From contig DBRN01000011.1 in assembly GCA_002305995.1 (NCBI GenBank), positions 93,628 through 157,627 on the forward strand: a stretch of DNA of 64,000 nt. The letters are read 5' to 3'. Below, piece by piece: positions 3,575 to 60,743 of the stretch. The notes below the pieces were generated by a model. The model ran no database searches. It saw only the letters and a program-made list of their open reading frames with translations, and was not told the origin of the DNA. Numbering within the stretch: position 1 is the first letter of the stretch; every line of letters starts with the position of its first letter. Made by a program: the position numbers and the translations under genes. This DNA is from Atopobiaceae bacterium UBA1367 (GTDB lineage Bacteria > Actinomycetota > Coriobacteriia > Coriobacteriales > Atopobiaceae).

Positions 3575-4483
3575 CTATGCGAAGGCCGCGCAGATCGCGT
3601 CCAGCAGCATCACGGCGAAGGTCTGCGCGTCGCCCGTGGTGAAGGTGCCGTCGTAGCCGAGGCCAAAGGGCAGCTCCAGGCGTACCAGCGGCGGCGTGCG
3701 GCGCGAGCTCTCCACGGCCGTGCGGATGCGTCGGGGGAGCGTGTCGATGTCGTCGGTGGTGAGGTTGGGCGTCTTGGACCTGCCCTCGAGCGGCGTGGTG
3801 GCGAGCACGAGCACCAGCTGGTCGCCCTCGCGCGACTGCTCGGTCTCGCTCACCAGGTCGAGCCCGTTCTTGTCGGTGGTCGCCGACGCGAGGTTCCAGA
3901 TGCGCCCAGCTATGTTGCGCGAGATGGGATCCTCGGCGGTCATCGAGATCTGCATGTGCTCGAGTACCCCGGCGGCGCGGGCGAAGCCCATGCCGCCCAT
4001 GGGATGGGGGCCGGCGGCGGGCTTGCCGTCCCACACATGGTGCAGGCGTTCGATGGCGTCGAAGGTGTCGGGGAAGGCCATGCCGTCGGCCAGCTGGCCC
4101 TGGCTCTCCTGGAACTGCTTGACGGCTGCCTCGGTGTACACGCCATAGTAGCCATCCGGCTCGCCGCACGAGAAGCCCAGGATGTTCAGGCACTTCTGCA
4201 GCTGTCGCACATCGGCTCCGTGGAAGTTGGGAAGGCGCAGGTAGAGGGTGCGATCACCCATGCGATACCCCTCGTCGACCAGGATCGACCACGTGGCGGT
4301 GTCCACCTCGGCACCCAGTGGGAGCCCGTGGTCGAGCCGGAAGCGCGCGACGGCCGTCGCCGTCGACGGGCCAAAGGTCTGCGCGAGGTGCTCCGCCTCG
4401 TCCGTCTCGTAGCCAAGCGTGGCAAGCCGCGCCTGGATGTCCTCGACTGCGGCGCCGGTCGCGCCTTCCTTGATAGGCCTCAT
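3575..4483 (-). CDS. peptidoglycan-binding (PG_binding_1-like) domain protein with an uncharacterised C-terminal domain
   Basis: Two tandem peptidoglycan-binding repeats (GATGAAVEDIQARLATLGY...TATAVARFRLDHGLP and GADVRQLQKCLNILGF...YGVYTEAAVKQFQESQGL). The start was set to MRPIKEG, preceded by GAGGAG; the upstream part of the track ORF overlaps the next gene. Confidence 0.75.
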   Translation of the reverse strand: MRPIKEGATGAAVEDIQARLATLGYETDEAEHLAQTFGPSTATAVARFRLDHGLPLGAEVDTATWSILVDEGYRMGDRTLYLRLPNFHGADVRQLQKCLNILGFSCGEPDGYYGVYTEAAVKQFQESQGQLADGMAFPDTFDAIERLHHVWDGKPAAGPHPMGGMGFARAAGVLEHMQISMTAEDPISRNIAGRIWNLASATTDKNGLDLVSETEQSREGDQLVLVLATTPLEGRSKTPNLTTDDIDTLPRRIRTAVESSRRTPPLVRLELPFGLGYDGTFTTGDAQTFAVMLLDAICAAFA

Positions 4484-23741: not shown

Positions 23742-24427
23742 ATGCTCGCCGCAGCGGGCGCGTCTGGTGGGGCCGCGACGACGACCCCGTCTGGTGGGGC
23801 CGCGACGACGACCCCGTCCGGCGCACGCCCGCGCATCAAGCTCTGCGGCATGTTCCGTGACGCCGACATCGATGCCGTAAACGATTCCCGACCGGACCTG
23901 TGCGGCTTCGTCGTCAGCTTCCCGCGCTCGCATCGGAGCGTCTCTCCCGAGCGGCTCGGGCGGCTGGTGGGGGCACTCGACGAGGCGATCGGTGCCGTCG
24001 GCGTCTTCGTGGACCAGCCGGAGGGGTTCGTGGCACAGGTGGCGAACGAGGTCGTCGACGTCGTCCAGCTGCACGGATCGGAGGACAACGCCTACATCGG
24101 GCGTCTCCGCGCGCTCACGGACGCCCCCATCGTGCAGGCCGTTCGCATGAGGTCCGCCCGCGATGCGTGTCGGGCGGCGCGCTCCGCCGCCGACCTCGTC
24201 CTCCTCGACAGCGGGTGGGGGACGGGCAGGCGCTTCGACTGGGCGCTCGTCGCAGGGGTGGCCAGGCCCTTCATGCTTGCGGGCGGGCTCTGCGCCGACA
24301 ACGTCGCCGAGGCCGTGCGCGCCTGCGCGCCCTGGGGCGTCGACATGAGCTCGGGACTCGAGACCGATGGGCTCAAGGACCCGGCACGGATCAGGGCTGC
24401 CGTCAGGGCAGCGAGAGGAGCCAGGTA

Positions 24428-31248: not shown

Positions 31249-31761
31249 ATGAGCGAGGAGAAGAGGCTCCCACGAGGCAGGCGCATGCTGCTGGCACTGA
31301 TCACGGCACTGGTCGTGAGCGTGGCGTTCGTGGGCATGACCATGGCGCGCAACAACTACGCCTCGTGGAACTGGGAGTTCTTTGCATGTGAGACCGGCGT
31401 GGCGGTGATCGCTGCGACATGTGGGTATCTCTGTGGATCCATGGACGAGCGCGGCGTGCGTTGGGCGGACGGCTACCTGGCATCCGACAACGGTGCGCTG
31501 CGCATCCTCCTGAGCAACCTCGTTCCCGCTGGGTTCTGTGCCGTGCTCATGACGCTGGCCCTCGCCGTGCTCAACGTCGCCTATGTGTCCACGGCCCTCT
31601 TCCATGAGGAGCCGTTGGGCATCCCCATGGGCATCCTCATGCGCTTTCTGGCCGACATACCCACCTGCCTCGTTCTTTGCCTGGCAGTGCGCCTAGCTGC
31701 GCTCGGCATTGTCAACAGGCACGCGAGGGGGTTGGAAGCCAAAGAGACGACGCGCCAATAG
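31249..31761 (+). CDS. hypothetical integral membrane protein
   Basis: About 170 aa from MSEEKRLPRG, with four predicted hydrophobic segments. The upstream part of the track ORF (from 30976) overlaps the preceding gene. Confidence 0.55.
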   Translation: MSEEKRLPRGRRMLLALITALVVSVAFVGMTMARNNYASWNWEFFACETGVAVIAATCGYLCGSMDERGVRWADGYLASDNGALRILLSNLVPAGFCAVLMTLALAVLNVAYVSTALFHEEPLGIPMGILMRFLADIPTCLVLCLAVRLAALGIVNRHARGLEAKETTRQ

Positions 31762-31999
31762 GGGGGATGCGCGTCGTCTCGAAGTGGGACTATGCCCGCA
31801 CTCCTTCCTGAGGGGGAGAGGGTCCCTCTGAAGAAGTTAACTATAGTTTACTATTTCTCCCACAGAATGCAAGAGCGTATGTAGGAAATCTGACAGGTCG
31901 TATCGAGGGGCACTGAAGGGGCGCGTAGGGCCAAGCGATGAGGGCTGCTCCATGGCCATCGCGTGAGGAGGCCCATCCTGTGATGGACTGAGACCCGCA

Positions 32000-32526
32000 T
32001 CGGACAGGAAATCGGGAAGCTGTGCGAAGTTGGGATGTGCGCCGGAAAGGGAAATGCCGACCTGTGCAGGGCCGGGGCCAAGGGCGGAAAGGAAAAGCCG
32101 GAGTTGTGCGAGGCCGGCCCCCCAGCCGGAAAGGGAAATCCCAAGTTGTGCGAGACGATGCTCAGCCTTGGAAAGAAAAATCCCAAGTTGTGCGGGGCCG
32201 GGGCCAGGGGCGGAAAGGTTTTCCTCGACTTTTGACCCCAGAGGGATCGCACAACTCAGGGTTTTCCTTTCCGCCAGCGGTGTGTCGTCCGCACAACTCA
32301 CGGATTTCCTTTCCACCATGGACTCCGGCCTCGCACAACTCAGGGTTTCCCTTTCCAGCATAAGCCAAGGTCCTGCACAACTCCGGCTTTTCCTTTCCGC
32401 CATGGGCCACGGCACCGCACAACTCGGGCTTTTCCTTTCCACCAGCGGTGTGTCGTCCGCACAACTCCGGCTTTTCCTTTCCGCCATGGGCCCCGACACC
32501 GCACAACTCGGGCTTTTCCTTTCCGG
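32000..32526. repeat. head-to-head arrays of a 42-bp repeat (6 + 7 units), locus 1
   Basis: GGAAAGG-N8-GAGTTGTGCG cores start at 32002, 32044, 32086, 32128, 32170 and 32212. The reverse-complement units (CGCACAACTC-N8-CCTTTCC) have CCTTTCC at 32266, 32308, 32350, 32392, 32434, 32476 and 32518. All spacings are exactly 42 bp. Confidence 0.92.
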
Positions 32527-32731
32527 TGGGGAGGCACAGCCTCCACAGCATGGCCTACACACAACCCAAGCTCTTCCCCTCCATCGTCTCCCGGGCATCT
32601 GGTACGGCGCAGTGGCAGCTTCGGGAGTCACGGCCCGCATGCCCTGCCACCGAGACGGACAGCCCTGCGGCAGGGCCGAGCCGCCAGAGGTCCTCGACGT
32701 GGCCCGCCACCGGCTGATCCTGTCAGGTCGT

Positions 32732-33463
32732 TCAGAAGTCCCGAGACTCGTAGATGCGCTCGGACAGCAGCATCGAAGCGCCGTAGACGGCCAATGCCAC
32801 GACAAGCGCACCGGCCATCAGCGGCAGGGGGGAGCCCAGCGCCCCCACGACAGACGAGACCGTCCCTGCCACGGTGCGCACCACCTCCCGCACCACCTCC
32901 CGGACGGGTTCGATCACAAGGAGCGTGCATGCCAGGAAGGGCAGCATGAAGTAGACGCGTGCGCGCGAGAGCCCTGTCTTGAAGAGGAGGGGCATCTCGA
33001 TCGCGAGGTAGAGGATACAGACCACCAGCACCAGGCCACTCAGGAGCACAGCCTCCCCCACGGGGACGAGGCCCGGCTGCCCATGCAGCACCATCGCGGC
33101 GGCGGCCCTCACGCACATGCCCGTCAGATTTGCGAGGACCTCGAGCATCACCACCCAGAGCAGCTGGGTGGCGTAGCGGGAGCGCACCACCAGGGAGCGG
33201 GTTATGGGCAGCGAGAGACGAACGCCCTCCCACCCCTCGCGCTCGTCGTTGCCAAAGAAGGTGAGGCAACCGTAGAATGCGAGCATGGTCACACACGTTG
33301 ACACGATGGTGCTGTGCACGTTGGTGGCTAGTGCGGTGGCGTCAGGCGCCGCCTTCGCGACGTTGCCCATGACTGCGATCAAGGGAAATGTCGCAACAAG
33401 CAGGAGATACCCCTTGGCGGCGCCCTTGAGGGTGCACCAATCCGAATACAGCAGTGACCTCAT
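32732..33463 (-). CDS. ABC-2-type transporter permease
   Basis: 243-aa polytopic membrane ORF directly following, and abutting, the ABC ATPase gene. Confidence 0.72.
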   Translation of the reverse strand: MRSLLYSDWCTLKGAAKGYLLLVATFPLIAVMGNVAKAAPDATALATNVHSTIVSTCVTMLAFYGCLTFFGNDEREGWEGVRLSLPITRSLVVRSRYATQLLWVVMLEVLANLTGMCVRAAAAMVLHGQPGLVPVGEAVLLSGLVLVVCILYLAIEMPLLFKTGLSRARVYFMLPFLACTLLVIEPVREVVREVVRTVAGTVSSVVGALGSPLPLMAGALVVALAVYGASMLLSERIYESRDF

Positions 33464-41259: not shown

Positions 41260-41880
41260 ATGGCCAGCAAGCGGCGCGTGGCGGCAGTCGAGATGATCGC
41301 CCAGGCCAAGGGCCGCCTGTACGACGCCAACTTTGACCCTGCCATCACTGCCGCGCTCGACGAGTGCAAGGACCTCTGCCACGACTACAACAAGATGCGC
41401 CCCACGGCGCGGTTCGAGCGCGGCGCCCTTCTGCGTGCCATCGTGGGCTCCATGGGACGGACGGCCACCATCGTCTCTCCCTTCTGGTGCGACTACGGAA
41501 CCAACATCCACCTGGGAGAGAACTTCTATGCCAACCATGGCCTGGTCATCCTTGACGGCGCGCCCGTGACCTTCGGTGACAACGTCTACATCGCGCCTCA
41601 CTGCGTGATCTCCACGGCGGGCCATCCCATCGACGCGCCACGCCGCAACGAAGGGCTCGAGTATGCCCTGCCCATCACCGTGGGCGATGACGTGTGGCTT
41701 GGCATGGGCGTCATGGTGTGCCCGGGCGTGACCATCGGCAGCAATGTGGTCATCGGTGCAGGCAGCGTGGTGACGCGCGACATCCCCTCGGGGGTGGTGG
41801 CGGTGGGCAACCCCTGCCGCGTGCTGCGCGAGATCGGCGAGGCTGACGTCCTGCGCTACGAGCGCTGGGTGCGGGAGTAG
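41260..41880 (+). CDS. sugar O-acetyltransferase (maltose/galactoside acetyltransferase family)
   Basis: Mac N-terminal region (YDANFDP...C....YN) followed by hexapeptide repeats (VWLGMGVMVCPGVTIGSNVVIGAGSVVTRDIP). The start MASKRR is preceded by GAGAGGAG. Confidence 0.88.
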   Translation: MASKRRVAAVEMIAQAKGRLYDANFDPAITAALDECKDLCHDYNKMRPTARFERGALLRAIVGSMGRTATIVSPFWCDYGTNIHLGENFYANHGLVILDGAPVTFGDNVYIAPHCVISTAGHPIDAPRRNEGLEYALPITVGDDVWLGMGVMVCPGVTIGSNVVIGAGSVVTRDIPSGVVAVGNPCRVLREIGEADVLRYERWVRE

Positions 41881-41905
41881 TCCCGCGACCCCTCGCGTGA
41901 TCGTC

Positions 41906-42802
41906 CTATCCGATCCTGCGGTGCTCGCTCGGGGTCTGTCCGTAACGCTCGCGGAAACGCCTGGTGAAGTAGCTCTGGCTTGAGAACCCGCAGTTGCGAG
42001 CCACCTCACCGATGCTCGCGTCACTGCCCTTGAGCTGCCGCGAGGCCATGAACAGGCGATGGTTGGTGAGGTACTCCATGGGCCTGGCCCCCAGCATCGT
42101 CTGGAACTCGCGCTGTGCCTCGCGCTGGCTCACGCCGCCGGCCCGGGCGATCTGGTCGATGGTGAGCTCCGTGGCATAGTGGTCCTCCACAAAGCTGATC
42201 ATGTTCTTGAGCCGGTCCACGGTGCGGGCATAGGCTCGCGTCTCGGTCTGCTGACGTGGCTTGGGGGCATTGGCCAGGATGAGCAGGGAGGCGCGGGTGA
42301 GCGCCTCGCGCGAGGTGGCCTCGAAGAAGTCGTGCTCGTGGGCAATGTCCTCGAAGGCACGGCCTATGAGCCGCGCCGCCTCCCGCTCCCAGGGCTCGCC
42401 GTCTGCCCTCAGCGCGCAGGACTGGATGGCTCCCGCCTGGGCGAGGTGGCGAAAGTACTTGATCCACAGGGCGGAACCCTCGTCGCCGTACAGCATGCGT
42501 GGATGACACACGAGGTCTCCCTCCCTGGCATCCATGCCGTCGATGGCCTGCTCGGCATGGGGCACCCCTGAGTTCACGAAGGCGGCGTCGCCCGCGCGCA
42601 GCACGTAGCGCTCGCCACCGGCGAGGTAGAGTAGCTCCCCCTCCTGGACGATCACGAACTCGTACTCGTCATGCCAGTGGAAGGGCACCTCGTTCTCGCA
42701 CGGGTCGTTGAAGTAGCAACCGCAGGGAAAGCTGGCCGTCCCGTGGCTGTACAGCTCCACCCCCGACGCATTGACCAAGATGGGGCCGTTGTACGTAATC
42801 AT
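41906..42802 (-). CDS. AraC-family transcriptional regulator (cupin + HTH)
   Basis: N-terminal cupin-like sensor (FHWHDEYEF) and a C-terminal AraC HTH (IARAGGVSQREAQREF...GFSSQSYFTRRFRERYGQTPSEHR). Confidence 0.88.
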   Translation of the reverse strand: MITYNGPILVNASGVELYSHGTASFPCGCYFNDPCENEVPFHWHDEYEFVIVQEGELLYLAGGERYVLRAGDAAFVNSGVPHAEQAIDGMDAREGDLVCHPRMLYGDEGSALWIKYFRHLAQAGAIQSCALRADGEPWEREAARLIGRAFEDIAHEHDFFEATSREALTRASLLILANAPKPRQQTETRAYARTVDRLKNMISFVEDHYATELTIDQIARAGGVSQREAQREFQTMLGARPMEYLTNHRLFMASRQLKGSDASIGEVARNCGFSSQSYFTRRFRERYGQTPSEHRRIG

Positions 42803-48779: not shown

Positions 48780-50309
48780 CTAGCAGACGTTCAGGAACTC
48801 GAAGCGGCCCATCTCGTAGGCGTAGGTCTCTGCGGCCTTGAAGGTGGATGTGACGTTGAGATCGGTGATCTCCTGAGGCCACCAGCGGGTGGACATGGTG
48901 TACTCGCCGCCGTTGACGTAGATCTCGATGGCCGAGGTATCGATGACCATGCGAACGTCCTCGAGCCTGCCGGCGGAGAGCTCGGCGAGCGGTAGGCGGC
49001 GCACGGTGCGGTAGCCACCGGCAATGCCCTTGAAGCTCAGCTCGACCATGTCGCCTATCACGGCGAGCTCGAGGTCGGCGTTGAGCAGGATGCGCCCCTC
49101 GCCCTCGATGCCCTTCAGGCGCACGTCGGCGGTGCCGTTGGCAAACGCGGCGCCGATGGCACCCTCGATGTCGAAGGCATCGTAGTCGGAGGTGCCCAGC
49201 TTGCCGTTGGAGTCCTTGGCTCCCTCGGCGGTGAAGTCGATGCGCGCGCCGCGCAGGGCGTCGTACTCCTCGCAGGGCCACTGGCAGATCCTGCCGGCGT
49301 CGTTGAGCGAGAGCTCGCGCAGCCAGGTGAGGGTGTGCAGCCACTCGTAGGTGGGCACCTGGTACTGCATCTCGATGTCGGGCAGGCCCATCCAGCCCAC
49401 CAGGATCTGGCGACCCCTCTCGTCGGTGAAGACCTGCGGCGCATAGAAGTCGAAGCCGTAGTCCAGCTCGACGAAGGTGTCCTCGTCGATGCAGCCGTAG
49501 GGGGCGGCGGCATCCATGAGCTCCCTGTCTCCGGAGAGCAGGTCGACGACCGTCCCCTCCACGGGAAAGTAGCCGCTGTTGAAGTTGTTCTGGAACTTGG
49601 TCAGGCGGCTGGGAACGCCCTGCGGGCACACGAAGAAGAACTCCCTGCCACCCAACGTGACGATATTGGGGCACTCCCACATGTAGCCGAAGGGCTTTCC
49701 GCTGATGGTGGTGCAGGATCCGGCGAGCTGCCAGTCGCTGACGCCATCGGGACTCTGGTAGAGGAGCATGGCGGGATGGTCGTCCATGGTGCGGGCGCCC
49801 AGCAGCATGTTCCAGGTGTCGTTCTGCCACCAGACCTTGGGGTCGCGCACATGGCAGCTGCAGTAGCTGGGATAGCCGTCGTTGCCCAGGACGAGCCTGC
49901 GGTCGGAGAAGGTGCGCCCGTCCTTGGAGATGACGAGCGTCTCGTTTGCCTGGCGGCCGTCGTAGTCGTAGTTGTGCTCGCCCGGCTCCAGCACGTTGCC
50001 GGTGTAGTAGCACCACATCTCGTCATCGCGCACCACGGCGGAGCCGGAGTAGGAGCCGTTCTTGTCGAGCTCCATCTCGGGAATGATGGCCCCGCGATGG
50101 AACTCCCAGCTGATCAGGTCGCGACTGGTCCAGTGGCCCCAGCCATGGCCGGGCCACGGCCAGCGCGGCGCGTACTGGTGGAAGATGTGGTACTCGCCCC
50201 TGAACTGGCAGAGGCCGTTGGGATCGGAGAGCCAGCCCACCGCGGTCTGCAGGTGAAAGCCAAGCCTCCAGTTGTGCTGACGGTAGTCGAGGTTGACGTG
50301 CATTTGCAT
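48780..50309 (-). CDS. scrB: sucrose-6-phosphate hydrolase (GH32)
   Basis: WLSDPNGLCQFRGEYHIFHQY (nucleophile NDPNG-type motif), RDPKV and WECP motifs. It is adjacent to the fructokinase and PTS genes. Confidence 0.88.
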   Translation of the reverse strand: MQMHVNLDYRQHNWRLGFHLQTAVGWLSDPNGLCQFRGEYHIFHQYAPRWPWPGHGWGHWTSRDLISWEFHRGAIIPEMELDKNGSYSGSAVVRDDEMWCYYTGNVLEPGEHNYDYDGRQANETLVISKDGRTFSDRRLVLGNDGYPSYCSCHVRDPKVWWQNDTWNMLLGARTMDDHPAMLLYQSPDGVSDWQLAGSCTTISGKPFGYMWECPNIVTLGGREFFFVCPQGVPSRLTKFQNNFNSGYFPVEGTVVDLLSGDRELMDAAAPYGCIDEDTFVELDYGFDFYAPQVFTDERGRQILVGWMGLPDIEMQYQVPTYEWLHTLTWLRELSLNDAGRICQWPCEEYDALRGARIDFTAEGAKDSNGKLGTSDYDAFDIEGAIGAAFANGTADVRLKGIEGEGRILLNADLELAVIGDMVELSFKGIAGGYRTVRRLPLAELSAGRLEDVRMVIDTSAIEIYVNGGEYTMSTRWWPQEITDLNVTSTFKAAETYAYEMGRFEFLNVC

Positions 50310-50384
50310 GGGTGGGACCTTCCCTTCTCTGCGGGCGATGAGAGGCCCCGCCGACCTGATGCGGGCGGGCGGGGCCACATGTGC

Positions 50385-56559: not shown

Positions 56560-58050
56560 TTAGCGCGTGATCGTCTCGTTCCAGCCGGGCAGGTCGAGCA
56601 CGGGCGCCTCGGCGGTGGCGTACATCTGCGCCATGGTGTCTGCCATGGGGTAGACGGTGCCCGTGGCCGACAGCGTGCATGCCACCCGCAGGTCTGCCGC
56701 CTCGGGGCAGAACCAGCGCGAGGCGAAGGTCTCGGCGCCTCCGTTGGCGAAGATCTCCACGACGGAGCCGTCGACCAGCACACGCAGGTCGTCCAGCCCG
56801 TCGAGGGGAATGGAGCGGCTCGTGCGTCCGGCGGACGATGCTTCGTCGAGGTAGCGGACGCCCAGACGTCCGTGCTCGTAGAACACCTGGAAGCTGCCGT
56901 CGAGCGTGAGCGCGCCCTCACCCTCGATGCCCGTGAGCACGATGTCGGCCATGCGCCCTGCGACGATCGTCTCGCCGCTCAGCGCCCGCCCGTCCCCACG
57001 TAGCCCCTCCAGCTCGGGCACGGGGACCTGGAGGATGCGCCCGTCGGGGCGGCGCGAGAGCAGGCGCGGCACCGTCGTGCAGTGCCACCACGCGAGCCCG
57101 TCGGGGACGGAGGTGTAGTGGTCGTCAAAGGTGCCCATCCACCCCACGAGGATGGTGCGACCGGCATCGTCCACGAAGGTCTGTGGGGCGTAGAAGTCGT
57201 GGCCGAAGTCCCACTGCACGAAGCCGCGCTCGTCAATGGTGTCGGTGTCGATCAGGCGCTGGCCCTCCGGCAGCTCGAAGTAGCCGGGCGTCCAGCGGTT
57301 GAACCAACGATCCCGCAGGCGCGGCAGGCCTTGCGGTGAGATGGCGAGGTACTCGCGACCATCGAGGCTCACCACGTTGGGGCACTCCCAGACGAAGCCA
57401 AAGGGGTACTCCGACTCGATGGCGTGGCTGAAGGTCCAGCTGATGCCGTCTTCGGAGTCGTACAGCAGGCACAGGCCGCGCGTGTCCTCGTGGCGCCCGC
57501 CCAGCAGCATGCGACGCCTGCCGTCCTGCTCCCAGACCTTGGGGTCGCGCACGTGACAGCTGCAGTATGCGGGGTAGTCGGCATTGCGCAGCAGCACCTG
57601 CTTGGGCCCAAGGCGCAGGGCGCCCGGAGGCCCGTCTGGGTCCGGCGTCGCCACGCAGGTGATCGTGTTCTGCTCCCGGCCCGCGTAGACGTAGTCGAAG
57701 TCCTTGGGGCTGTGCCCGGGCACGGGGTCAACCACGTTGCCGGTGTAGTAGAGGCGCAGGACGTCCTCGCCGGACGGCCCGGCGTCGCGCTCCACGAAGG
57801 CGCTGCCGCTGAACACGCCATGGCGATCTTCGGGGATCGACGGCTGGATGGGCACGCCCTCGTACCTCCAATGGACGAGGTCGGGGGAGCTGAAGAGCCC
57901 CCACGCCTTCTGGTCCACTGTGGGCCAGTCGTGATCGTACTGGTAGAAGACGTAGTAACGCCCGCGGAACTGGCACAGCCCGTTGGGGTCGTTGAGCCAG
58001 TTGCGCGGGGAACGCAGGTGAAAGCCGACCTCCCAGCTCCTGTTGGGCAT
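56560..58050 (-). CDS. GH32 beta-fructofuranosidase / sucrose-6-phosphate hydrolase paralogue
   Basis: WLNDPNGLCQFRGRYYVFYQY, RDPKV and WECPN motifs. The start MPNRSWE is preceded by GAGAGGAG. Confidence 0.88.
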   Translation of the reverse strand: MPNRSWEVGFHLRSPRNWLNDPNGLCQFRGRYYVFYQYDHDWPTVDQKAWGLFSSPDLVHWRYEGVPIQPSIPEDRHGVFSGSAFVERDAGPSGEDVLRLYYTGNVVDPVPGHSPKDFDYVYAGREQNTITCVATPDPDGPPGALRLGPKQVLLRNADYPAYCSCHVRDPKVWEQDGRRRMLLGGRHEDTRGLCLLYDSEDGISWTFSHAIESEYPFGFVWECPNVVSLDGREYLAISPQGLPRLRDRWFNRWTPGYFELPEGQRLIDTDTIDERGFVQWDFGHDFYAPQTFVDDAGRTILVGWMGTFDDHYTSVPDGLAWWHCTTVPRLLSRRPDGRILQVPVPELEGLRGDGRALSGETIVAGRMADIVLTGIEGEGALTLDGSFQVFYEHGRLGVRYLDEASSAGRTSRSIPLDGLDDLRVLVDGSVVEIFANGGAETFASRWFCPEAADLRVACTLSATGTVYPMADTMAQMYATAEAPVLDLPGWNETITR

Positions 58051-58120
58051 TGGTCTCCTCTCGGCGTGGCGTGCGGGCATAGGTCGAGGATATGCCTTGC
58101 GCGTGCGGGTCTGGCCGTGC

Positions 58121-58135
58121 GGGAACGATTTCACA
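58121..58135 (-). promoter_or_regulatory. candidate LacI-family (ScrR) operator, site 2
   Basis: The minus strand reads TGTGAAATCGTTCCC, 71-85 nt upstream of the GH32 start. Confidence 0.35.
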
Positions 58136-58241: not shown

Positions 58242-58720
58242 GGCGGGCGGAGAGGGCTCGACCGTGCGAGGGTGTGGCCGGTGACGGAAAGGGTTTTGCC
58301 GAGTTGTGCGGGGCGCGGGCCTCGGTCGGAAAGGGAATCGCCGAGTTGTGCGTGGTGGCTCCCCATGCCGGAAAGAAAAACGCCGAGTTGTGAGAGAGGA
58401 CGACCGCCCCTGGAAAGGAAAAGCCCGAGTTGTGCGCGCCGTACCTCCCTGCCGGAAAGGAAACACCCGAGTTGTGAGAGCCAGCGGGGTCACAACTCGA
58501 CAAAACCCTTTCCGCCACCGGCCACAAGATCGCACAACTCGACAAAACCCTTTCCGCCACGGGCCCAGACCCCGCACAACTCGGGGATTCCCTTTCCGGC
58601 TGAGGCCCGCGCCCCGCACAACTCGGGGATTCCCTTTCCGGCAGAGGCCCGCATCCCGCACAACTTGGGGTTTTCCTTTCCATCGTTGACCCAGCTGCCT
58701 CACAAGTTGGGAAAGAGACC
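58242..58720. repeat. head-to-head arrays of the 42-bp repeat (5-6 + 5-6 units), locus 2
   Basis: GGAAAGG/GGAAAGA starts at 58286, 58328, 58370, 58412 and 58454. CCTTTCC starts at 58507, 58549, 58591, 58633 and 58675. All spacings are 42 bp. Degenerate terminal units occur near 58246 and 58698. Confidence 0.92.
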
Positions 58721-58914
58721 GTCGCCCATCTCCCGGCACCCATCGGCATCCCTCACATGTCGCATCATCCCGCCACTACCTATGCGGCACCCCCGAGCTT
58801 GCCGACGGAAACCCGCGGAGACCACCGATGGGCCTGCCTTCCAGGTCGCTTCGCGAGACGAGTCTGTGGGACCTCCTCGATATGAGGCGCCCGACGGGTG
58901 CGCCCAACAGGGGA

Positions 58915-59006
58915 GGGGCATTCCTCCCTGATGAGGGGTCCCCCGCAACCACGAGAGCGGCGGCAATCGTCGAGAGTGGGGCGTCCCTACCTGATGAGGG
59001 GTCCCC
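58915..59006. repeat. 29-nt direct repeat x2, 63-bp period, proximal copy covering a gene's stop codon
   Basis: GGGGCATTCCTCCCTGATGAGGGGTCCCC (58915-58943) and GGGGCGTCCCTACCTGATGAGGGGTCCCC (58978-59006) are 26/29 identical. The second encodes the ..GRGPLIR* end of the ACT-MBL gene. Confidence 0.8.
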
Positions 59007-60396
59007 TGCCGGGGCAGATCGTGTACCCGTCGAGCTTGTGGCGAAGCTGCCCGCGAATGCGGCCGGCGAGATCGGGCTTGGTGTCGTAGCTGGCGCGCAG
59101 GTGTGGTTGCAGGTCGAGGAAGGTGCGCTGCAGGTCCGTGAGCCCTGTGTCGTTGACGAGCAGGTCGCCGGTGAAGGCAACCCGCAGCTCGGGGCAGGTG
59201 ATGATGGTCTCGCCGCGCGCATGGCCCCCAGCCCCCTCGATGATCCTGAGGTTCCAGTCGCCGAAGCGCATGCTGCCGATGGTCTCGAGGGGGTCGTCGC
59301 CACTGCGGCCACCTATGACGACACAGCGCCCAAGCTGCGGCGTCTCATAGCGCGAGAGGATCTTGGTGAGCGTGTTGTAGGGGGCGTGCATGGGATTGCG
59401 CTCGCGATAGCTCGCCCGGCCCTTGTGCTCGTTGACGAAGTTCGAGTAGCAGGTGCGGTTGAGGTAGACGGTGTCGAAGAGGCGCAGGAGCCCTGCGGCA
59501 TCGATGTCGGGGTGGGTGATGAGCGCGCTCTTGCGCCTGAAGGAGAAGTCGCCGAAGAGGTCGTCGAGCAGCGTGTGCATCTCGTTCTCGAAGCACCCAA
59601 GGCCGCAGTCGACGAACAGCAGCGCGCCGTAGTACTCCAGGATGTAGGTGTTGTCGCCAAAGGGCGGCTCGATGACGTGCATGGTGAGCCTGTCCGCGAG
59701 CCTGTGGCGCGTGACCGTGGCCTTGAAGTCGCGACCGCTGTTCTCGACGATGAGTTCGGCGAAGCGCTGGATCCGGCCGAAGACCTCCTTCGGTGACTCG
59801 TCGCGCTTGTCGACCACCTGCATGACCTTGTTGGCCTGTGCGAGCGCGCCGTTCGTCTCCTCCTGCGAGAGGCCGAGCGTCTCACGCAGCGTGTTGGCAA
59901 AGGTGACGTAGAAGATGGTGCTGTCGAGGAGTCGATCGGTCGCCTCGTAGTCGAGGACGCGCACCTCGCAGATCTTGGAGAGGTCATCGAGCAGGCCCTT
60001 GATCTCGGCGGTGTTCTCGACGAGCAGGCCCATCTTGAAGTTCTGGTAGGGGGTGCCGTTCTCCTGCGAGTTGATGTAGGGGATGTTGACCTCGTGGCGC
60101 TTGATGACCTCGAGCGTGGGAAGCAGCGCGCCGGGAACGTCGGGCAGGACGAGCTCGATGAGGATGATCTGCCGCATGCCCGGGTCATCCACGAGGTACT
60201 CGATGTCCTTGAGGCGGTCGGAGATGAGCTCCTGCTGCTCCTCGGTGGCGTCGACCTCGATGAGCAGCGTCCGCGTGTCGACCGCGCGGTTGTAGTTGAC
60301 GCGGACGATGTTGCCGCCGCACTCGGCGATGGCCTTGCTGGCGGTGAGGAAGGCGCCAGCCTGGTCGGGCATGTTGGTGATGTAGGTCTTGCGCAT
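58987..60396 (-). CDS. ACT-ACT-MBL-fold hydrolase fusion protein
   Basis: Two N-terminal ACT-like units (ITNMPDQAGAFLTASKAIAECGGNIVRV... and ELVLPDVPGALLPTLEVIKRHEVNI...) are followed by an MBL-like domain (LITHPDIDAAG, GGHARGE). The start MRKTYI was chosen. Confidence 0.75.
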   Translation of the reverse strand: MRKTYITNMPDQAGAFLTASKAIAECGGNIVRVNYNRAVDTRTLLIEVDATEEQQELISDRLKDIEYLVDDPGMRQIILIELVLPDVPGALLPTLEVIKRHEVNIPYINSQENGTPYQNFKMGLLVENTAEIKGLLDDLSKICEVRVLDYEATDRLLDSTIFYVTFANTLRETLGLSQEETNGALAQANKVMQVVDKRDESPKEVFGRIQRFAELIVENSGRDFKATVTRHRLADRLTMHVIEPPFGDNTYILEYYGALLFVDCGLGCFENEMHTLLDDLFGDFSFRRKSALITHPDIDAAGLLRLFDTVYLNRTCYSNFVNEHKGRASYRERNPMHAPYNTLTKILSRYETPQLGRCVVIGGRSGDDPLETIGSMRFGDWNLRIIEGAGGHARGETIITCPELRVAFTGDLLVNDTGLTDLQRTFLDLQPHLRASYDTKPDLAGRIRGQLRHKLDGYTICPGRGPLIR

Positions 60397-60546
60397 GGGA
60401 TCCCCCCGGTGGCCTTGGTTTGTACGATGATAGGCCATTCGGGCGGATTGTCGGCTTTGGTAGCGGTTTGGAAACGAGAGGTACGACGGGCGTGCCCGGC
60501 AGCTGCGCGCGCGACGGGCAGGGGCTGACGTGCAGCCCCCGCAAAA

Positions 60547-60635: not shown

Positions 60636-60648
60636 TCTCACCGGCCTC

Positions 60649-60722
60649 GCGACAGGTGGGGTCCTGCTGCCGAGACGGGCGGCCTTGCGACAGGTGGGGT
60701 CTTGCCGCCGAGACGGGTGGCC
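60649..60722. repeat. ~38-bp tandem repeat x2 (each built of two ~19-bp sub-repeats)
   Basis: GCGACAGGTGGGGTCCTGCTGCCGAGACGGGCGGCCT and GCGACAGGTGGGGTCTTGCCGCCGAGACGGGTGGCCT lie immediately downstream of the lipoprotein gene. Confidence 0.8.
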
Positions 60723-60743
60723 TCCCGAGAGGGTTCCCTCGCG

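Follow-up and report, generated by a model that had tools for sequence, protein, structure and literature searches.

A 64,000-nucleotide stretch of the genome of the Atopobiaceae bacterium UBA1367 (GenBank assembly GCA_002305995.1, contig DBRN01000011.1, positions 93,628 to 157,627 of the forward strand), referred to here as the window, includes two intergenic arrays of 42-bp repeat units, named locus 1 and locus 2, in which the units are arranged as two arms that converge on a short centre. Both are members of a family of non-coding arrays that is spread over intergenic sites of the whole genome and restricted to one species. Each unit carries two highly conserved blocks, GGAAAGG and GAGTTGTGCG, and the comparison of strains indicates that constraint is restricted to these blocks. 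We consider that the arrays could be phased sets of binding sites for a sequence-specific DNA-binding protein that change by unit slippage, a reading to which we assign a probability of about 0.45. The family appears to be undescribed and, judging from the sequence comparisons, can be considered a new architectural variant among the bacterial interspersed intergenic repeats; what these comparisons give is evidence of a functional constraint and not of a function.

Structure of the arrays and constraint on the unit

Locus 1 (nucleotides 32002-32582) is composed of six forward and seven reverse units of the form GGAAAGG-N8-GAGTTGTGCG, and locus 2 (58244-58723) of five good units per arm with one degenerate unit at each edge (Table 1). 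A preliminary description of the window, made from the sequence alone, had placed the units almost to the base. Its count of six plus seven units at locus 1 holds, but these are not uniformly clean: forward units 1, 2 and 6 are degenerate, and unit 6, the innermost, is of a distinct type, named T-type, that reads GGAAAGGTTTTCCTCGACTTTTGAC, i.e., GGAAAGG-TTTTCCTC-GACTTTTGAC. The motif GGAAAGG-N8-RAGTTGTG, with up to three mismatches allowed, has 27 matches in the window, whereas 1.52 would be expected and none of 100 shuffles exceeded 5; three of the 27 lie outside the two loci. The spacing of 42 bp, which had been claimed for all units, is confined to the arms. Over the centre, the distance from the start of one 23-nt match to that of the next is 38 bp in locus 1 and 37 bp in locus 2, and the degenerate unit at 32558-32582 sits 58 bp, not 42 bp, past the last good unit of locus 1. 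Linkers recur at a distance of 168 bp as previously noticed, the CAGCGGTGTGTCGTC linker being found at 32275 and 32443; Tandem Repeats Finder reports periods of 42 and 84 bp in the arrays, with an 84/168-bp higher-order repeat in the reverse arm of locus 1. The second locus is a real array with a similar layout, but its polarity, judged by the side on which the T-type unit is located, is opposite to that of locus 1.

Alignments of the 26 units of the window, and later of 88 unique units from nine loci of the family, resulted in the unit consensus gCC..tGgC GGAAAGG rAAAnCCC GAGTTGTGCG gGGcc.gg., in which the two blocks carry 1.3-2.0 bits per position. The 8-bp spacer between them (N8) is variable in sequence while keeping an A-tract followed by a C-rich segment, or a T-tract in the T-type units. 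The linker is a GC-rich 17-bp segment of 0.2-0.5 bits per position with the weak consensus GGGCCGGG GCCnnnGGC; linkers differ at a median of about 10 of their 17 positions, and the same linkers return within and between loci. All units are oriented toward the array centre with the GAGTTGTGCG side proximal. In each array one of the units adjacent to the centre is of the T-type, with a T-tract replacing the A-tract and a TGAC end, and it is followed by a centre module of about 10 bp (usually CCC...) and then by the first reverse unit. Arms across the family include 3 to 7 units.

Two observations point to constraint acting on the units. The first is their spacing: 68 of the 72 within-arm spacings are 42 bp, two are 84 bp, and the remaining ones are 41 and 43 bp. 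Neutral intergenic DNA with such a level of substitution should carry indels and the linkers are almost free of them, so the maintenance of 42 bp despite the divergence of the linkers argues for a constraint on length or phase. The second comes from the comparison of the window with L012 and L025, homologous sequences from other assemblies. Changes between strains were found at 3/340 positions of the two conserved blocks (0.9%), compared with 9/160 in the N8 spacer (5.6%), 19/292 in the linkers (6.5%) and 22/408 in the flanking intergenic DNA (5.4%). The rate in the blocks is thus about 6-7 times lower than elsewhere (Fisher p=3.6e-5, blocks versus the remaining classes together). Purifying selection or homogenisation would appear to act on the two blocks alone, with N8 and the linkers changing at the rate of the flanks. 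A constraint with this distribution reads as the signature of sequence-specific recognition, or else of a homogenisation restricted to the blocks. The retention of an A- or T-tract while the N8 sequence drifts suggests a readout of DNA shape rather than of bases. The earlier proposal of a protein-binding array is therefore supported indirectly, through the block-only constraint between strains and the constraint on linker length; the assignment to iterons or centromeres, which was part of the same proposal, is not, as discussed below.

Linker families and the centre module are common to different loci and to both arms of one array, which indicates that multi-unit blocks have been copied or converted between sites and arms. 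Single 42-nt units have no intrinsic fold (mean minimum free energy z of +0.37 for forward and -0.15 for reverse, 88 unique units versus shuffles), and a hairpin in each unit (GCCCG...CGGGC around AGTTGTG) was consequently ruled out.

Dispersal and strain variation of the family

The preliminary description took locus 1 to be one of two such loci. It is instead a member of a dispersed family, of which nine loci have been read and about 25 translations recognised. Gene callers sometimes translate the arrays, and array translations were thus used to search protein collections for further copies. The open reading frame (ORF) of the window that runs through locus 1 had 14 matches among 1.84 billion representative proteins, 13 of them with a 14-amino acid periodicity, and a 325-amino acid mosaic of all six unit frames had 17 matches, 14 of which were new. 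The periodic motifs in the array translations include ERKxxSCA, AQLxxFLS and HNSGFSFP. About 25 distinct spurious ORFs in public protein collections are translations of other arrays. These spurious "hypothetical proteins" (P0008-P0021 and P0148-P0161) are 150-340 amino acids long and originate from ENA, NCBI and Logan gene calls; the search with array translations was an effective way to find copies of a non-coding repeat.

Seven further loci were retrieved, and all nine have the same build of n forward units, a polar centre and m reverse units. They are located between metG and argD (L033), between genes for a band-7 and an ABC protein (L034), between amylase and phosphotransferase system (PTS) EIIA genes and between an acetyltransferase gene and feoB (both on L038), and between recQ and eamA (L039, with L047-L049 representing the same site in other strains); the array on L040 has the same architecture as the others. 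Convergent, tandem and divergent intergenic contexts are all represented and both polarities are present, which fits a role at the DNA level better than one at the transcript level. At least six arrays are found on a single 1.77-Mb contig of one assembly, and all the arrays retrieved come from one species, all checkable sources having RuvB proteins 99-100% identical. One additional array was present in about 78 kb of unselected flank. From this array and the approximately 25 ORF translations we infer roughly 20-40 arrays per genome, an estimated 0.5-1% of it.

The nearest sampled relative (L041-L046) has a RuvB 90% identical and coding DNA about 78% identical to those of the array-bearing species, and it keeps the ruvCAB-eamA-recQ synteny. 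The eamA-recQ spacer, which includes the array and extends for about 1.26 kb in the array-bearing species (L039, L047-L049), is an empty 64 bp in this relative, where no array was found in 21 kb around ruvCAB-eamA-recQ. The arrays appear to have been gained in this lineage, at positions where the nearest sampled relative has an empty site.

Other repeats were noticed beside two of the arrays. A self-complementary 25-nt direct repeat, CATCCCACG(C/T)CAGGCAGGGTGGGAC, is present twice right beside the recQ/eamA array (L039, 8690-8790), within the 1.26-kb spacer that is 64 bp in the relative. A perfect 38-nt GC-rich palindrome, GGGACGGGGCGAAGCCCGCGCGGGCTTCGCCCCGTCCC, follows immediately after the first array of L038 (1230-1270), between convergent genes, and is probably a bidirectional terminator.

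Exact-protein look-ups of the flanking genes were used to retrieve the same loci from other assemblies. Within the species, every sampled strain carries arrays at the same positions, and their lengths change by gain or loss of whole units. At locus 1 the 6+7 composition (window, GCA_030058555.1, one ENA contig) contrasts with 6+5 units after a clean 84-bp deletion of two units in the reverse arm (L012, 1.77-Mb contig) and with 6+0 units where the whole reverse arm is missing (L013, another ENA contig); at locus 2, L025 and L026 have one 42-bp reverse unit fewer. Logan short-read contigs often end inside the arrays. The same array sequences are nevertheless found in independent SPAdes, MEGAHIT and NCBI metagenome-assembled genome (MAG) assemblies of different samples, which rules out an assembly artefact.

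Locus 1 had been described as not plausibly coding, and this applies to the family. The G+C content at third codon positions (GC3) does not exceed 0.67 in any frame of locus 1 and is 0.57-0.67 over the arrays in all six frames, versus 0.79-0.95 in real genes. The conserved positions form contiguous blocks without a 3-nt periodicity, and the reverse arms are translated in different frames depending on the locus (AQLGLFLS, HNSGFSFP, RTTRAFPF). Together with the 41- and 43-bp spacings, these characteristics rule out a repetitive protein gene.

The arrays had also been thought not to correspond to any described repeat family, and none emerged from the searches. The exact two-unit DNA pattern had only chance matches in the 185,579 GTDB species representatives, for example in a DnaJ zinc-finger gene of an archaeon, as well as four unrelated matches in JGI metagenomes and none in IMG/VR. 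No similarity was found in 72,556 PLSDB plasmids or 50,697 INPHARED phages. Rfam gave nothing at the gathering threshold, the only matches being spurious plant microRNA hairpins of 33-41 bits versus thresholds of 168-197, and literature searches (42-bp repeat, Atopobiaceae repeats, accession numbers) returned no description of the family. One of the four JGI matches, L023, which fits the pattern by chance, is an unrelated low-GC (36%) metagenome contig that has three exact 42-bp tandem copies of GGAAAGTCTTCAAAACAGTTGTG (3630-3736), probably a coding 14-amino acid repeat.

Possible roles of the arrays

In the reading that we favour, the two blocks would be the recognition sequences of a putative sequence-specific DNA-binding protein that coats one face of each arm. 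As four helical turns amount to 42 bp, all sites would face one side of the helix. Each would be a bipartite, non-palindromic site of about 25 bp with an A- or T-tract between two contact blocks, and phased A-tracts could add in-phase bending. The opposed arms would form a dyad-symmetric nucleoprotein complex nucleated at the polar centre, and this complex could be a nucleoid-structuring site, an insulator, or a docking site of the recombinase or transposase kind. Expansion and contraction would take place by whole-unit slippage or unequal exchange.

A more ambitious version, which we regard as doubtful, sees in the arrays a chromosome-wide cis-acting system, in which a protein specific to the lineage would polymerise outward from the centre, along one face of the helix in each arm, to generate some 20-40 dyad-symmetric nucleoprotein bodies per 1.8-Mb genome. 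These could be dispersed centromere-like or condensation anchors, or bidirectional insulators of transcription or replication.

Several points weigh against the binding-array reading. No binding protein has been identified for the arrays, and no DNA-binding or partition gene is consistently adjacent to them. Gene conversion among more than 200 units (concerted evolution) could keep the blocks uniform without any function, and the duplication of whole units accounts for part of the strictness of the 42-bp spacing. Between the innermost forward and reverse cores the centre-to-centre distance is 35-36 bp, a non-integral number of turns, and the two arms are therefore not in one continuous phase. 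Furthermore, the edge units decay as those of neutral tandem arrays would.

The F-plasmid sopC includes 12 tandem 43-bp repeats, each of which binds SopB. As in sopC and iterons, the period of the arrays is close to four helical turns with, by analogy, one binding site per unit, and sopC may be the closest analogue of how the arrays work. However, sopC and iterons are direct repeats found beside par or rep genes of plasmids or phages, as a single copy per replicon, whereas the arrays occupy at least 20 chromosomal loci, have convergent arms and are not flanked by par or rep genes. None of the nine loci has a ParA, ParB or Rep domain encoded nearby, and the neighbours are housekeeping chromosomal genes (trp operon, GH1, GH32, PTS, metG, argD, recQ, ruvABC, feoB); the earlier suggestion that the arrays are iterons or centromere-like sites is therefore not upheld. 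Resemblances of the arrays to promoters of extracytoplasmic function (ECF) sigma factors, to Tus-Ter (GTTGTAAC) and to MtrA sites, and of their centre to a CRP-like TGTGA-N12-TCACA site, are unconvincing, with a misfit in spacing or in sequence.

The main rival, to us an improbable but serious one that is not mutually exclusive with the binding-array reading, is that the arrays are non-autonomous foldback elements, similar to miniature inverted-repeat transposable elements (MITEs). Their arms would be inverted ends made of tandem transposase-binding sites, scattered by a transposase encoded elsewhere, and the conservation of the blocks would reflect transposase recognition and recent common ancestry. 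Such an origin agrees with the species-restricted dispersal over at least 20 loci, with the presence of both polarities and with the filling of the RecQ-EamA spacer described above, and the polar centre module and linker families shared across loci indicate that multi-unit blocks, not single seeds, were copied. It is difficult to reconcile with the eight oriented copies compared, which showed no discrete termini, conserved leader or tail, terminal inverted repeats or target-site duplications. Neither the 64-kb window nor the approximately 120 kb read at other loci includes a transposase or integrase gene, and no transposase was found in the approximately 200 kb read of the roughly 1.8-Mb genome. 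In addition, the array positions are stable among all sampled strains, and the outermost sites, which would be expected to matter most for cleavage, are the least conserved.

Long inverted arms of tandem repeats that constitute multiple transposase-binding sites are known from the Drosophila foldback (FB) transposons and from the ends of Tn7 and Mu. Tn7 and Mu ends consist of 3-4 irregularly spaced sites and have sharp termini and target duplications; unlike these, the arrays show neither irregular sites nor sharp termini nor target duplications, and the FB elements are eukaryotic. The arrays are also, like the pneumococcal BOX elements and like BrickBuilt and MITEPgRS/464 of Porphyromonas gingivalis (PMC4596501), dispersed, intergenic and species-restricted, with tandem sub-units that vary. 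The BrickBuilt/MITEPgRS elements (PMC4596501) and BOX measure about 0.2-0.6 kb, are present in roughly 10-130 copies and have sub-units of 23, 41 or 45 nt. They differ in possessing a non-repetitive leader and tail, terminal inverted repeats like those of insertion sequences, and only direct sub-units, whereas neither a leader or tail nor terminal inverted repeats were detected at the arrays, the whole element being the units in two inverted arms.

A function at the RNA level is unlikely. By this account read-through transcription would produce a long hairpin that terminates transcription, protects mRNA 3' ends as REP/BIME do, or yields double-stranded RNA. The long hairpin or cruciform envisaged in the preliminary description is thermodynamically possible and by prediction very stable (locus 1, RNA: -337 kcal/mol, z=-9.4; locus 2, DNA: z=-10.2), some linkers of locus 2 are complementary between arms, and at least one gene 3' end abuts the array at 8/9 loci. 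As a function, however, it is contradicted by the unequal arms (6 versus 7, 3 versus 6), by the strain with 6+0 units, and by most linkers not being complementary in register, so that the helix would consist of 25-bp stretches with internal loops of 17 nt in between. One array separates divergent gene starts, the single units are unstructured, Rfam gave only the spurious sub-threshold matches mentioned above, and a hairpin needs neither an exact 42-nt period nor non-palindromic bipartite blocks. REP/BIME (REPINs), whose units are imperfect palindromes folding into a stem-loop, owe their mobility to RAYT transposases and are bound by the host proteins IHF and gyrase. The arrays resemble them in being dispersed, intergenic and often located at gene 3' ends, but while REP/BIME are clustered in alternating orientations, the array units are unfolded and set in two blocks of direct repeats.

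Slightly less credible still is that the arrays are functionless tandem minisatellites, homogenised by gene conversion and unequal crossing-over and tolerated in intergenic DNA. The variation of unit number between strains, the identical adjacent units, the higher-order repeats, the degenerate edges and the lack of associated genes would all be expected of such sequences. Homogenisation should nevertheless cover whole units, and only the blocks are conserved while N8 and the linkers change at the flank rate; indels are almost absent from the highly diverged linkers, and the same polar centre is found at all loci. Both the RNA-hairpin and the neutral-minisatellite readings are less likely than the binding-array and foldback readings.

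It is very improbable that the arrays are a CRISPR-like array, a repetitive protein gene or an assembly artefact, even though conserved repeats are regularly interspaced with degenerate terminal repeats as in CRISPR, 42 bp equal 14 codons with several frames remaining open, gene callers occasionally report array ORFs, and short-read contigs break in the arrays; the second and third are excluded by the evidence given above. CRISPR spacers are unique and about 26-72 nt long. The array linkers, in contrast, are 17 nt long, semi-conserved with a consensus, and recurring, the arms are inverted, the loci number in the dozens, and neither the window ORFs nor the genes tabulated for the seven other loci include cas genes or domains, which rules out a CRISPR array.

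By distribution, the arrays resemble STAR, BOX, BIME, MIRU and minisatellite-bearing MITEs, and they are not members of any of them. The Staphylococcus STAR elements are composed of a 14-bp motif, T(G/A/T)TGTTG(G/T)GGCCC(C/A), whose copies are all directly oriented and set apart by spacers of 40 bp or more (PMC3532100). They share with the arrays a regularly recurring short motif with diverged spacers, many intergenic loci, a species-specific location and a length that varies between strains, and their function and propagation mechanism are likewise not known (PMC3532100). Unlike STAR, the arrays have a bipartite 25-bp core, a fixed 17-bp linker, convergent arms, a polar centre and a high-GC actinobacterial host. 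With an intergenic motif and spacers, species specificity and variable unit number, but no STAR motif, they can be considered an analogue and not a member.

The anatomy of the arrays is unusually "designed", combining a bipartite non-palindromic site, a four-turn period, convergent arms, a polar centre and selection on the blocks only. If a cognate protein exists, it would represent a novel module for the recognition of DNA by proteins, and may also reveal a new way of organising chromosomes or a bacterial foldback element of a new class; its discovery would raise the interest of the arrays for specialists in genome architecture. The arrays systematically break short-read assemblies and seed databases with spurious "hypothetical proteins". 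They are also ready-made variable-number tandem repeat (VNTR) markers for strain tracking of this Atopobiaceae species. REP/BIME, BOX, STAR and MIRU have repeatedly proved to be handles for nucleoid proteins, mRNA stability, typing schemes and mobile-element biology.

Genomic setting of the window

The window is ordinary chromosome of 63-72% GC. Its genes include prs, a glmU-like gene, metH, metF, the trp operon, GH1, HAD phosphatases, a GntR-ABC operon, a P-type ATPase, ROK, PTS, two GH32 genes, a sucrose-phosphorylase-like gene and murT. None of the window ORFs is a mobile-element gene or belongs to the cas, rep or par genes. As had been described, the genes on either side of locus 1 converge on it with their 3' ends; locus 2 has a gene 3' end on one side and a gene 5' end on the other. 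The GH32 gene next to locus 2 is called at 496 amino acids in L025, which places its true start near 58050. Promoter and terminator scans of the array gave nothing meaningful.

Table 1. Components of the two arrays of the window and their neighbouring genes.
Feature	Coordinates	Strand	Description
Locus 1 left neighbour	31249-31761	+	170-amino acid hypothetical membrane protein, no Pfam match; 3' end toward array
Locus 1 forward arm	32002-32236	+	Six 42-bp units; cores from 32002, 32044, 32086, 32128, 32170, 32212
Locus 1 centre CCCAGAGGGAT	32237-32247		11 bp separating the T-type unit from the first reverse unit
Locus 1 reverse arm	32248-32524	-	Seven CGCACAACTC-N8-CCTTTCC units, exactly 42 bp apart; CCTTTCC at 32266, 32308, 32350, 32392, 32434, 32476, 32518
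Locus 1 edge unit CACACAACCCAAGCTCTTCCCCTCC	32558-32582	-	Degenerate, out of phase
Locus 1 right neighbour	32732-33463	-	ABC-2 permease of the GntR-ABC operon; 3' end toward array
Locus 2 neighbour, GH32 gene	56560-58134	-	5' end toward array
Locus 2 forward arm	58244-58478	+	Degenerate edge unit (58244), then good units at 58286, 58328, 58370, 58412, 58454
Locus 2 centre AGCCAGCGGG	58479-58488		10 bp; T-type unit on the minus strand
Locus 2 reverse arm	58489-58723	-	Five good units, cores 58489-58681; degenerate edge unit near 58699-58723
Locus 2 neighbour, ACT-domain protein gene	58987-60438	-	3' end toward array

The MAG GCA_030058555.1, which matches the window, is labelled "Acidobacteriota bacterium" at NCBI. 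Proteins of Atopobiaceae share 82-90% identity with its RuvB (86% in Parafannyhessea umbonata; also Olsenella and Tractidigestivibacter), from which it follows that the host, a gut-type actinobacterium, is an uncultured member of the Atopobiaceae (Coriobacteriia). The gene content of the window and of this MAG (MurT, LytR-Cps-Psr, Asp23) is Gram-positive, and the label is probably wrong.

The two GH32 genes (48780-50378 and 56560-58134) are paralogous and located 6 kb apart, and the second interrupts short-read contigs (L027-L032), being another source of fragmentation near locus 2. A 93-nt tRNA-Arg(acg) called by ARAGORN at 41828-41920 was unconfirmed by Rfam and overlaps the end of a maltose-acetyltransferase-like ORF, so that the call is probably false. 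The trpF (PRAI) ORF carries at its 5' end a perfect 27-bp x2.1 tandem duplication (23761-23818), and a 38-bp x2.4 tandem repeat is found upstream of a Cthe_2159-domain gene (60642-60732).

Two copies of a small hairpin-like motif are located at a distance of 63 bp from each other where the ACT-domain gene has its 3' end (58920-59000; CCTCCCTGATGAGGGG and CCCTACCTGATGAGGG), and the related CCTTCCTGAGGGGG is located to the left of locus 1 (31795-31820). These sequences had no match in Rfam, and the motif may define a second small repeat family.

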